This document shows, in pieces, positions 58,878-64,000 of a DNA stretch of 64,000 nt. Source of the stretch: an uncultured archaeon. GTDB taxonomy: Archaea > Asgardarchaeota > Lokiarchaeia > Sigyniarchaeales > SOKP01. Each line of letters starts with the position of its first letter. Position 1 is the first letter of the stretch. The notes under the pieces are model-generated. The model worked only from the letters and a program-made list of their open reading frames with translations, was not told the origin of the DNA and did no database searches. The position numbers and the translations under genes are program-made. The stretch covers positions 64,001-128,000 of the forward strand of contig CAZOYD010000002.1 of the NCBI GenBank assembly GCA_964583985.1, written 5' to 3'.

Positions 58878-60011
58878 ATGGATAAAGTAGCAATAGTTGG
58901 TTGTGCTCAAACCAAGTATGAAGAAGACAAAATTGACTTAACTATATCAGAGTTAGTTTTTGAAGTTGTACAACAACTTCACCATGATTTGGGCATAACT
59001 AATGATGATATTGGGTGTGTAATAACCAGTTCTAATGATTTCAATGATGGAAGAACGATTGCAAATATGGCGATTCAAGATGCAGTGGGTTCAGTAAGAA
59101 AGGGAGAATCTCGTGTTTCTGGAGATGGAGCTTTTGCATTTGTATATGGCGCCATGAGAATTTTATCAGGTTCCTATGACACCGTTCTCGTGGTTTCTCA
59201 TTGCAAATGTTCGGAGGTAAATCAATACCTCGTTAACAATTCGATATTTGATCCATACTATCAAAGGCATTTGGGATTAGATCAAATCTCATCAGCAGGA
59301 TTAATGGCAAACATGTACATGAATAAATATGGAATAACTGAAGAACAAGCTGCTAAAGTTGCTGTAAAGAATAGAAAAAATGCTCTTAACAATCCATATG
59401 CTCATTTACAAAAGGAAATATCGATTGATGACGTGCTAAATTCAAAAATGATGGCATACCCATTAAAGGAGTTGGATCTACCACCTTTTTCGGATGGAGC
59501 TGTAGCGATGTTATTGACAAGTGAAGAGAAAGCGAAAAAATTGACAGATACACCAATATGGTTAAAAGGGTATGGGAGTTGCACTGATGCATACTATTTA
59601 GGTCATAGAAATATGACGGATCTCATCGGTTTGGAATTAGCAGCTAAAACAGCCTACAAAATGGCGGGAGTTGCAAATCCTCTGAAAGAAATAGACGTGT
59701 TTGAAGTTTATGATGCATTTTCATTTCATGAATTAATGATATACGAAGCCTTGGGATTATGCGATAAAGGAAAAGGAGGAAAATTCATTGATGAACATTT
59801 TGAAACTCAGCTTCCAATAAATAAATCTGGAGGCGTATTATCTAGTAATCCAACAATGGCAAATGGTTTAATTCGAGTCGCAGAAATTGCAACGCAACTA
59901 AAAGGGGAAGCTGAAAACCGTCAAGTTGATGGTGTCAAGCTCGGTTTAGCACACGGGATGAATGGAATATGTTCTCAAGGCAATTGTGTATTAATTTTTG
60001 GAGGAGATTAA
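58878..60011 (+). CDS. Cys-less SCP2-type thiolase-fold protein, Ltp4-like
   Basis: DLGITNDDI, S.DF.DGR, ESRV.GDGAFA, DGAVA, EVYDAF, INKSGGVLSSNP..ANGLIR. Confidence 0.85.
   Translation: MDKVAIVGCAQTKYEEDKIDLTISELVFEVVQQLHHDLGITNDDIGCVITSSNDFNDGRTIANMAIQDAVGSVRKGESRVSGDGAFAFVYGAMRILSGSYDTVLVVSHCKCSEVNQYLVNNSIFDPYYQRHLGLDQISSAGLMANMYMNKYGITEEQAAKVAVKNRKNALNNPYAHLQKEISIDDVLNSKMMAYPLKELDLPPFSDGAVAMLLTSEEKAKKLTDTPIWLKGYGSCTDAYYLGHRNMTDLIGLELAAKTAYKMAGVANPLKEIDVFEVYDAFSFHELMIYEALGLCDKGKGGKFIDEHFETQLPINKSGGVLSSNPTMANGLIRVAEIATQLKGEAENRQVDGVKLGLAHGMNGICSQGNCVLIFGGD
60000..60006 (+). promoter_or_regulatory. Shine-Dalgarno-like site for the ATG at 60016
   Basis: GGAGGAG ending 9 nt upstream of ATG 60016, inside the end of the previous gene. 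Confidence 0.55.
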
Positions 60012-60015
60012 AAAA

Positions 60016-61212
60016 ATGTCTAAAAATCATGTTGCAGTAGTAGGAATGGGACAAACTAAGTTTAGAAGTAAACGAAGAGATGTTAATATCCCAGAAATGA
60101 TCTATGAAGCGGTTGATATGGCTCTTAAGGATGCAAAATTAGAACCTGGAGACATTGATGCTATCTTAATTGGCAATTTTTGATATCATATCGGTATTAA
60201 ATGCTAGATGGATCATTTCGAGGGAATTAATTTTTCTGAAATGTGGACGGGTATTGATGCCGCGCCGGGTTATTTGAAACCAGTGGTAAAAATTGCAACG
60301 GGAGGCACCACAGGAAGTTCTTTAGCAATTTGTGGGTATCATAATATTGCCTCGGGAATATATGATAAAGTTCTTGTTGTTGGATGGGAAAAATTGAATG
60401 AAGGAGGGGCAACGACGGGAATTATCACGGCGTTCGATCCTGTGTGGGAGAGACCCTCATTAGCGGGAGCTTTAGGTCCACTTGCATTAATGGCGGGAAT
60501 GTATTCCGCTAAATATGGGATAACTCCAGAACAAGCGGCAAAGGTAACTGTTAAAAATAGAAGTAATGCCGCAAATAATCCTTTTGCTCACCTTCAGATG
60601 CCAGATATTACGATTGATTATGTGATGAGTTCTCAAGTTATTTCTTATCCCCTAAGATTACACGATTGCTGTCCTCAAAGTGAAGGTGCATGTGCTCTAA
60701 TTTACGCAAATGAAAAAGAAGCCAAAAAGATCACGGATACACCTGCTTGGTTTCATGCAGTAGAAACGGCTCATTATTATACGTTTGGGACGGATGATAA
60801 GATGTACGATCTTCCTACGGCCACCATCGCATCTAAAAAAGCATATAAAAGAGCAGGAATAAAAAATCCTTTAAGAGATTTGGATGTAGCAGAAATATAT
60901 GAACCCACTTCTTGGAGCGAACTTTCATGGACTGAAGCGTTAGGGTTTTGCAAGCCAGGAGAGGGAGGTAAATTACTAGATGAAGGGATTACCCAAATGA
61001 GTGGAGAATTACCCGTTAATCCATCAGGAGGAGTCTTAAGCACGAATCCCATCGGTGCTACCGCATTAGTTAGAGTAGCTGAAGCTGCTATTCAGATTAT
61101 GGATCGTGGTGGAAAGCGTCAAGTCCCAGATGTAGAAAAAGCGCTTGCTATGGGATTTGGTGGAAGTTTATGGACGGAAGTAATGATATTAGGAAATGAA
61201 CCCTTGAGGTGA
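60016..61212 (+). CDS. Cys-less SCP2-type thiolase-fold protein, Ltp3-like; two exons (60016-60177 and 60208-61212), predicted 388 aa after splicing
   Basis: N-terminal VAVVGMGQTKF...DIDAILIGN and C-terminal MDHFEG...TGGTTGS...GWEK...VNPSGG..STNPIGATA are in the same frame, separated by 30 nt containing TGA and TAG. Confidence 0.85.
60178..60207 (+). other. Putative 30-nt archaeal bulge-helix-bulge/loop pre-mRNA intron
   Basis: TTTTGATATCATATCGGTATTAAATGCTAG; 9-bp stem 60179-87/60193-201, 3-nt bulge 60176-78, 4-bp helix 60172-75/60202-05, 3-nt AGA 60206-08; removal restores the ORF. Confidence 0.8.
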
Positions 61213-61712
61213 AAAAATTGAGTAAGAGAAGAAAAAGTAATGAAGAAATTTTTGAAATAAAGTGGAAAACAGATCTACCATACCGCTATTCAATTGGGAA
61301 ACTTGCTGTAAAGTTTTTCGAAGAGTTAAAAGAACATAGAAAAATTATGGGAAGTAAATGCAAGAAATGCGGAAAAGTACACTTTCCACCAAGAGCTGTT
61401 TGCGCCGATTGTTTAGTAAAAATGACTGTTGATGATATGGTAGAACTACCTCCAAAAGGAACCTTGGAAGGATTTACCGTGGTAAATTATCCTTTTACAG
61501 ATCCCTCAACAGGTGGTATTCGTCCATTTCCATATGGATATGGTCTTTTCAAATTAGATGGTGCTGATACTTATACTATGCATTTTGTAAATGAGACCGA
61601 TGTTACTAAAATGAAAATTGGACAACGTGTCGAAGCTGTATTTAATGATAAACTCATAGGTGATTTTACGGCAGATATTCCATATTTTAACATAATCAAA
61701 GAGGAGAAATAA
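61209..61712 (+). CDS. DUF35-family Zn-ribbon/OB-fold protein
   Basis: KFFEEL, CKKC...FPPR..CADC, GLFKLDGAD, IGQRVEAVF. Confidence 0.9.
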   Translation: MKKLSKRRKSNEEIFEIKWKTDLPYRYSIGKLAVKFFEELKEHRKIMGSKCKKCGKVHFPPRAVCADCLVKMTVDDMVELPPKGTLEGFTVVNYPFTDPSTGGIRPFPYGYGLFKLDGADTYTMHFVNETDVTKMKIGQRVEAVFNDKLIGDFTADIPYFNIIKEEK

Positions 61713-61727
61713 AGGAGGAAAAGAAAT

Positions 61728-62177
61728 ATGACAGATGATATAGAGAAAAAAGTGTATCGTGGACGAATTAAAGTACCTTACAAGCACACCGCTGGGGCTT
61801 ATGTAGAAAAATTCATAACTGAAATAGGAAAAAACAACAAAATTTTTGGAGTTAAATGTCCTAAATGTGGAGAAGTATCAGTACCTCCAAAAATGATATG
61901 TTTTAAATGCTTTGAGAAAATGGAAGAATGGGTAGAAGTAGGAAATCAAGGTACTATCACCGGTTTTACAGTTGTTTCTCATTCTACACCTGTGATGCCT
62001 CTTGAACCTCCTTTTGCTTATGCATTGATTAAACTTGATGGATCTGATACTGATTTCGTTCATATAATTAACGAAGGAGATCCGAAAAAGCTAGAAATTG
62101 GTGCAAGAGTTGAAGCAGTATTTAAAGAAAAGCCACGAAAAAGAATTTTAGATATAGAATATTTTAAGTTGATTTAG
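61728..62177 (+). CDS. DUF35-family Zn-ribbon/OB-fold protein (second paralog)
   Basis: CPKC....PP...CFKC, GTITGFTVV, ALIKLDGSD, IGARVEAVF. Confidence 0.9.
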   Translation: MTDDIEKKVYRGRIKVPYKHTAGAYVEKFITEIGKNNKIFGVKCPKCGEVSVPPKMICFKCFEKMEEWVEVGNQGTITGFTVVSHSTPVMPLEPPFAYALIKLDGSDTDFVHIINEGDPKKLEIGARVEAVFKEKPRKRILDIEYFKLI

Positions 62178-63778: not shown

Positions 63779-64000
63779 TTACGCGGTATTTCCTAATTTG
63801 TAACCTTTAGCAACAGCTTCCATGACCGTTTGAGGATTTAGTACGTCTCCGACTTTCATTACTTCGAATCCCATTTCTTTGATCTCTTCATAAAGAGCAT
63901 CATTAGGAACTACTCCCGTTGCATGATATACATAGTCGATATTACTTATGACTTGATCGTTTCCTTGAGCATCGGTATAATTCACGTAATTTTCACCAAT
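63779..64000 (-). CDS. C-terminal fragment of an FAD/NAD(P)-dependent oxidoreductase (likely NADH:flavin oxidoreductase type), cut by the window edge
   Basis: DYV..ATG..PN..L, KVGD...P.TV.EAV..GY..G C-terminal motif. Confidence 0.7.
   Translation of the reverse strand: MGENYVNYTDAQGNDQVISNIDYVYHATGVVPNDALYEEIKEMGFEVMKVGDVLNPQTVMEAVAKGYKLGNTA

Follow-up and report, generated by a model that had tools for sequence, protein, structure and literature searches.

A candidate 30-nucleotide mini-intron of the bulge-helix-bulge type in a thiolase-fold gene of a Lokiarchaeia archaeon, and three more of the same layout in its genome

In the papers searched, cbf5, which encodes a pseudouridine synthase, is the one archaeal gene whose coding sequence is confirmed to be spliced (PMC2738675; a 2020 paper, PMC7714728, repeats this). 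The cbf5 introns, known from Desulfurococcales and Sulfolobales (Watanabe 2002; Yoshinari 2006; Yokobori 2009), mostly have an unconventional bulge-helix-bulge (BHB) motif and are cut by a hetero-oligomeric form of the splicing endonuclease EndA, an enzyme that cleaves between the second and third residues of the bulge (PMC2738675). The relaxed motifs HBh', hBH and BHL are cut only by EndA of the L1-loop (alpha-beta)2 and epsilon2 types, and Asgard archaea have an (alpha-beta)2 EndA with the L1 loop (PMC5829648). A 2026 preprint presents a census of Asgard introns that covers tRNA genes only (bioRxiv 10.64898/2026.10.13.758758). We looked at 64,000 nucleotides (nt) of an uncultured archaeon of the Lokiarchaeia (Sigyniarchaeales, SOKP01; assembly GCA_964583985.1, contig CAZOYD010000002.1, positions 64,001 to 128,000), a stretch that we call the window. 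In it, an SCP2-thiolase-like gene (60016-61212, forward strand) is interrupted by 30 nt, which a preliminary description of this DNA had proposed to be a BHB-type intron removed from the mRNA. Our literature search found no paper reporting such mini-introns in Asgard coding genes.

The thiolase gene starts at ATG 60016 and stops at 61210-61212. Its first exon reads MSKNH...DAILIGN, and the second resumes in frame at ATG 60208 with MDHFEG... Between them stands the insert TTT TGA TAT CAT ATC GGT ATT AAA TGC TAG (60178-60207), which is 30 nt long and keeps the frame. Exactly these positions are missing from 15 orthologues of the same genus, which share 85-96% protein identity and have no internal stop, and from about 45 further orthologues, those of Jord- and Freyarchaeia and of bacteria included. 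The intronless orthologues join GGN AAY to ATG GAY (GGN AAT to ATG GAY in the same genus) and encode ...IGN/MDHFEG, the slash marking the junction here and below. As AAT/ATG is not produced by any other register of a 30-nt deletion, the boundaries of the insert are 60177/60178 and 60207/60208. Cuts after the second bulge nucleotide, that is, after 60177 and after 60207, reproduce the exon junction of the intronless homologues. The preliminary description had claimed an in-frame insert of 30 nt with two stops in an otherwise intact gene, and all its statements on the sequence hold. The cuts it had derived from the fold, giving IGN/MDHFEG, are matched by the indel bounds in about 60 orthologues. 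It had also named orthologues with about ten sense codons at this site as a case that would speak for a simple nonsense pseudogene; the roughly 60 intronless orthologues lack the 30 nt altogether.

A 30-nt insert at the identical site is present in 21 other Promethearchaeota assemblies, which gives 22 carriers with this genome. The others are nine species-representative genomes (L024, L036, L040, L041, L052, L056, L058, L068 and L071), one genome obtained by pattern search (L111) and eleven metagenome contigs (L117-L136). An assembly artefact was ruled out, since the insert recurs in 21 independent assemblies. Within the exon 1 and exon 2 sequence available, the exons were free of stops and frameshifts in all 21 carriers checked. 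The ratio of nonsynonymous to synonymous substitution rates (dN/dS) between carriers was 0.02-0.1, with synonymous sites near saturation (median proportion of synonymous differences, pS, 0.73), and the carrier introns differed at about 5 of their 30 positions (~17%). The carrier exons are under strong purifying selection, and intact exons together with low dN/dS indicate that the host gene is functional in carriers and that the insert itself is constrained.

The region 60150-60225 was folded as a single sequence by minimum free energy, and a consensus was obtained with RNAalifold on the carrier alignment. Both folds give a 4-bp helix H, a 3-nt bulge, and a 9-bp hairpin h' (with two G-U pairs in this genome) closed by a 5-nt loop. 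Among the 22 carriers, five pairs are altered on both sides, four of them in h' and one in H, and these changes include series such as A-U, G-U, G-C. The wobble base of the Gly codon, which lies in the exon strand of H, covaries with its intron base (C-G, U-A, U-G). None of 500 shuffles of the 22-sequence alignment matched the observed covariation. When the partner strand was slid as a control, 28-47% of the cells were paired, against 92% observed.

On the 3' side, the cut falls within a 5x4 internal loop, in the context AG/A here and AA/A in most carriers. The pair adjoining this loop is U-U in this genome, and a 2-bp outer helix (A-U, U-G) is possible in 12 of the 22 carriers. The position of the 3' cut within an internal loop departs from the strict hBHBh' form, and the motif is therefore of the HBh'/BHL type; it has all four pairs in H, one 3-nt bulge, and 9 bp in h', where at least 2 are needed. 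The stem, loop, bulge and 4-bp helix that had been drawn by hand were recovered by both the minimum-free-energy fold and RNAalifold, and the consensus fold bore out the relaxed 3' side. The suggestion that selection acts on RNA rather than on a DNA palindrome is backed by the G-U intermediates and compensatory pairs. An alignment of orthologues, also proposed at that stage, was made and revealed both presence and absence of the insert and compensatory stem changes across the 22 carriers.

Besides RtcB, the genome carries genes for two EndA paralogues, 207 and 205 amino acids (aa) long and located at L102:1456-2076 and L103:1426-2040 on the reverse strand; each has both EndA domains. In an alignment with the catalytic alpha subunit of A. 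pernix (Aeropyrum pernix) EndA (3P1Z_B, E 1e-36), the first paralogue retains the Crenarchaea-specific loop Lys (SKPR versus EKPR, K44) as well as the Tyr, His and Lys of the catalytic triad. The second is without the Tyr and the His, as expected for a structural beta subunit. The enzymes for relaxed motifs, namely a broad-specificity (alpha-beta)2 EndA plus RtcB, are predicted to be present. In the mechanism that we propose, the last exon bases GGCA would pair with UGCU of the intron to form the central 4-bp helix, and the 3-nt bulge AU/U and the 9-bp hairpin would complete an HBh'-type motif with its 3' cut, AG/A, in the internal loop. The (alpha-beta)2 endonuclease would then cut after 60177 and after 60207, and RtcB would join the exons. 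Both stops would be gone, the universally conserved ...IGN-MDHFEG... would be restored, and the spliced product would be an SCP2-thiolase-like protein of 388 aa. We infer with high confidence that the mRNA of the thiolase gene is spliced by EndA and RtcB, cleavage and ligation both included.

Several observations weigh against splicing. Taken alone, the fold of the single sequence lacks significance (z = -1.74, with 10 of 200 shuffles doing as well); significance comes from the comparison across orthologues and carriers. At the 3' site a 3-nt bulge is missing, and in the minimum-free-energy fold this site is even base-paired. No covariation was seen in the outer exon-exon helix, although it is built from conserved codons and is little informative either way. 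The spliced form of this organism's protein was not found among 5.8 billion clustered proteins, where the best full-length match was 88% identical and where carriers yielded only truncated calls of 334-336 aa. Finally, the conserved ATG directly 3' of the intron and the near-immediate stop within it also fit a split gene.

In a split gene, an N-terminal peptide of 56 aa, ending at the stop at 60181, would be followed by a 334-aa protein re-initiated at ATG 60208; the two would assemble, and the RNA would not be processed. Such an arrangement is in accordance with a stop at the second codon of the insert in 22 of 22 carriers, with an ATG directly after the insert, and with the 334-aa open reading frame (ORF) already called in public annotation. 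However, the Met at this ATG is shared by all intronless orthologues, the bacterial ones too, hence the ATG is no adaptation to the insert. No Shine-Dalgarno (SD)-like motif precedes ATG 60208, while the neighbouring genes have GGAGG, and both the BHB geometry and the covariation between the Gly wobble base and the intron would be left unexplained. Moreover, the same architecture is found at phases 1 and 2 in the leuS, AIRS-like and VWA genes described below, where no start codon follows; re-initiation at an ATG therefore cannot explain these introns. We consider a split thiolase gene unlikely.

The two in-frame stops and the patchy distribution among close relatives could alternatively reflect a decaying pseudogene, or a selfish palindromic DNA insert in a gene that is no longer used. 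This is very improbable and is largely refuted by the selection data, as the carrier exons are intact and dN/dS is low despite the near-saturated synonymous sites. The insert is also far more conserved than synonymous sites, and its G-U intermediates and compensatory pairs point to selection at the RNA level. We also give little credit to translational bypass of the T4 gene 60 or yeast mitochondrial byp type, and to read-through past the 30 nt, for which the chances seem very slim. A stop right after a putative take-off region, followed by a stable hairpin, does resemble the gene 60 layout, but no matching pair of take-off and landing codons is conserved in the 22 carriers. The ATG is preceded by UAA, UAG or CAA, but by neither AAU nor GGN, and the GGU within the insert is not kept across carriers; ribosome hopping was rejected as there are no matching codons. 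Read-through, for its part, would insert 10 extra residues into the invariant IGN-MDHFEG motif and require the decoding of two stop codons. Splicing by EndA and RtcB is the reading that we retain.

Both strands of the genome were scanned for helix H followed by a 3-nt bulge and a stem, and a match was kept only if its removal fused two broken ORFs. Such a scan for other in-frame split genes with BHB folds had been suggested in the preliminary description. It recovered the thiolase intron and three more of identical layout (1+9+5+9+4+2 = 30 nt), in leuS, in an AIR-synthase-like (AIRS-like; PurM/HypE-like) gene and in a VWA/CoxE-like gene (Table 1). Pfam domains cross the leuS and AIRS junctions. 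In all three genes most orthologues of the genus are exactly 30 nt shorter and few share the insert: the AIRS-like intron is common to 4 of 23 genus relatives, and the VWA/CoxE intron is shared by two, the other matching relatives being 30 nt shorter. The AIRS intron has a canonical hBHBh' motif with an 11-bp outer helix (z = -4.7). In leuS the region searched measures 630 nt versus 570 in intronless genus orthologues, thus 60 nt longer, and 600 in some relatives. The ten residues SISQCGKYHK, within PMGYD-SFGLPAEN of leuS, suggest a second, stop-free insert of 30 nt near L138:2729-2758 (approximate bounds), the fold of which is not a clear BHB.

At bulge size 3, four ORF-restoring matches with a perfect 9-bp stem were obtained; each decoy size gave 0-1. 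Raw genome-wide counts of the 9-5-9 motif showed no excess at bulge size 3 (54 versus 41-53 for the decoys), and when perfect stems of 6 bp or more were admitted, the scan returned 14 matches versus 6-17 for the decoys, mostly false positives. The scan being strict, the intron count is a lower bound. A 33-nt BHB-like hairpin on the reverse strand at C1:89120-89152 was rejected; with a ZPR1 jelly-roll gene on one side and a phosphofructokinase gene on the other, matched by two separate Pfam domains, it is most likely an intergenic false positive. In distant thiolase paralogues of relatives (~35% identity), one internal stop was seen in an otherwise open match (Table 1), and these stops may be further introns in the gene family. 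In this genome, which is rated as 100% complete, ARAGORN called only 22 tRNA genes, 13 of them with an intron; non-canonical or multiple introns, of the kind that the 2026 preprint describes in Asgard archaea, probably conceal many tRNA genes.

The distribution of the thiolase intron was then compared with trees of different parts of the gene. On the exon-2 tree, the ten carriers among species representatives need ten state changes, which is no better than shuffled labels, and each of them has an intronless sister. On a tree of the flanks (-150 to +150, intron excluded), 19 carriers need 8 changes, a number as low in 0 of 500 shuffles; pairing with the intron constrains a few of the flank columns, and the metagenome carriers were selected via the intron. 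The +300 to +700 tree needs 17 changes, and 371 of 500 shuffles were as low. From this contrast between the flank and distant trees, intron presence is tied to a short local haplotype of about 300 nt. Carriers and their sisters diverge most beside the intron: per 60 nt, the gene studied here differs from its intronless sister L022 at 17 and 11 positions at the junction versus 2-7 farther downstream, and L071 differs from L034 at 6 versus 0-3 elsewhere. L040 (JAHLWP010000010.1) is a mosaic, with the intron and the next 240 nt identical to L071 (NJBI01000021.1), while the rest of the gene differs from L071 by about 20% and belongs to another clade. This mosaic reflects either natural recombination or a chimeric assembly, and other individual mosaics could likewise be chimeric metagenome-assembled genomes. 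Vertical inheritance with many precise losses was rejected as the sole explanation (10 changes for 10 carriers on exon 2 versus 8 for 19 on the flanks). The simplest reading would be that intron-plus and intron-minus tracts are exchanged by homologous recombination. The contig of one intronless orthologue (L018/L076; G015:C21, JABXKD010000119.1) ends 5 nt upstream of the intron site (GGAAT/ATGGAT), where a break in the assembly graph may stem from strain-level presence and absence of the intron.

Taken more broadly, we lean towards the view that uniform mini-introns of about 30 nt (1+9+5+9+4+2) pervade the coding genes of Loki-type Asgard archaea, the essential leuS included, that EndA and RtcB remove them routinely, and that homologous recombination spreads or removes them between lineages along with exon tracts of roughly 100-300 nt.

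The source genome comprises 3.8 Mb in 138 contigs, with 32% G+C, and no second intact copy of the thiolase gene was found in it, its paralogues being at most 42% identical. An SD-like GGAGG lies 5' of the gene start, at ~60000-60004. The operon consists, in order, of a paralogous thiolase-like gene, the intron-bearing thiolase gene, two DUF35/ChsH2-type genes and a class-III aminotransferase gene; a BKACE gene stands upstream in divergent orientation. In Pfam, Thiolase_N (PF00108) crosses the break and Thiolase_C_1 (PF22691) matches the C-terminus. The nearest solved relatives of the protein are of the SCP2-type thiolase fold (4yzo, the best, then 7yvy, 6hsj and the BbsB-like 7pxp), and Ltp2 (6ok1) is more remote than 4yzo. 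With Thiolase_N, Thiolase_C_1 and DUF35 partner genes nearby, the protein is predicted to belong to this SCP2-type thiolase-fold group. Carrier proteins in public sets (P0079, P0083-P0088) were deposited as 334-336 aa, starting at the exon-2 Met; public annotation truncates the thiolase gene of the carriers.

Table 1. Coordinates of the predicted intron, its motif and associated genes. Positions are those of the window, except where a contig or genome handle of ours precedes the colon.
Feature	Position	Strand	Remarks
Exon 1, SCP2-thiolase-like gene	60016-60177	+	54 codons; Pfam Thiolase_N match spans the junction
Candidate 30-nt BHB-type (HBh'/BHL) mini-intron, phase 0	60178-60207	+	TGA 60181, TAG 60205; architecture 1+9+5+9+4+2 nt
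Exon 2, SCP2-thiolase-like gene	60208-61212	+	334 codons + stop; sole part called in public annotations of carrier genomes
Central helix H, 5' strand, exon GGCA	60172-60175	+	pairs with 60202-60205; 97.7% of cells paired, 22 sequences
Central helix H, 3' strand, intron UGCU	60202-60205	+	folds and covariation
5' three-nucleotide bulge AU/U	60176-60178	+	predicted cut after 60177 (EndA rule, PMC2738675)
Intron hairpin h'	60179-60201	+	stem 60179-87/60193-201, loop 60188-92; 97.5% paired
3' splice-site region AG/AU	60206-60209	+	consensus: unpaired, facing 60167-60171 (5x4 internal loop); predicted cut after 60207
Possible outer exon-exon helix, 5' strand	60157-60166	+	pairs with 60210-60217; 83% of cells paired
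Paralogous thiolase-like gene, same operon, upstream	58878-60011	+	Pfam
Two DUF35/ChsH2-type genes (zf-ChsH2 zinc ribbon + OB_ChsH2_C OB fold), downstream in operon	61218-62177	+	Pfam
Candidate leuS intron	C64:4237-4266	-	phase 2, one TAG; also L138:2538-2567
Candidate intron of AIR-synthase-like (PurM/HypE-like) gene	C123:4513-4542	-	phase 1
Candidate intron of VWA/CoxE-like gene	C31:34232-34261	-	phase 2, two TAA codons
Relatives' thiolase paralogues with internal stop	G005:C71:39624-40883, G020:C39:31594-32853, G016:C11:42853-44118, G022:C208:8302-9465, G033:C92:22703-23863		

If this reading is true, a metabolic gene and at least three others would need the tRNA-splicing machinery to make protein, and Asgard archaea would process mRNAs by cut-and-join splicing genome-wide. 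Normal gene expression in the closest prokaryotic relatives of eukaryotes would then routinely include mRNA splicing that is independent of the spliceosome, which would bear on the tolerance of interrupted genes and of mRNA splicing before eukaryotes. Such genes would be systematically truncated or split in the public annotations of these genomes. The flank-linked distribution also offers a testable model of how introns of this kind move.

In eukaryotes, HAC1 and XBP1 mRNAs undergo non-spliceosomal splicing in a regulated stress response, with cleavage by Ire1 and joining by tRNA ligase or RtcB. The thiolase mRNA would resemble them in being cut and joined with the use of a tRNA ligase, but the cut would be made by EndA/TSEN instead of Ire1 and at a different recognition motif, and it is the splicing of HAC1/XBP1 that is a regulated stress response. 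Like the 5' untranslated-region intron of Haloferax volcanii HVO_1309 (PMC7714728), the thiolase intron would make an mRNA a substrate of the splicing endonuclease outside tRNA and rRNA. The HVO_1309 intron is however 46 nt long, lies in an untranslated leader of a euryarchaeon and was verified by circular RNA sequencing (circRNA-seq) and in vitro cleavage, whereas the thiolase intron breaks a reading frame. With the non-canonical tRNA introns of Asgard archaea and Thermoproteales (bioRxiv 10.64898/2026.10.13.758758; PMC5829648) it shares the same predicted enzymes, the HBh'/BHL classes and repeated gain and loss, in a lineage that is rich in such introns. Contrary to tRNA introns, its substrate would be the coding region of an mRNA, so that half of the motif must be built from codons.

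The cbf5 pre-mRNA intron is likewise short, lies within coding sequence, mostly has a relaxed or unconventional motif and is cut between the second and third bulge residues. Its hosts too have a hetero-oligomeric, broad-specificity EndA, and it too is present in some lineages and missing in others. Splicing is confirmed for cbf5, while for the thiolase intron we infer it from sequence. The cbf5 intron interrupts the codon of a catalytic Asp in Crenarchaeota; the thiolase intron sits in a metabolic thiolase-fold gene of Promethearchaeota and, though it would work in the same way, is no member of the cbf5 intron family. Where cbf5 introns were lost clade by clade, the thiolase intron is scattered within one genus and follows a local recombination tract, and, unlike the cbf5 intron, it has a uniform 30-nt architecture that recurs in introns of other genes in its genome.

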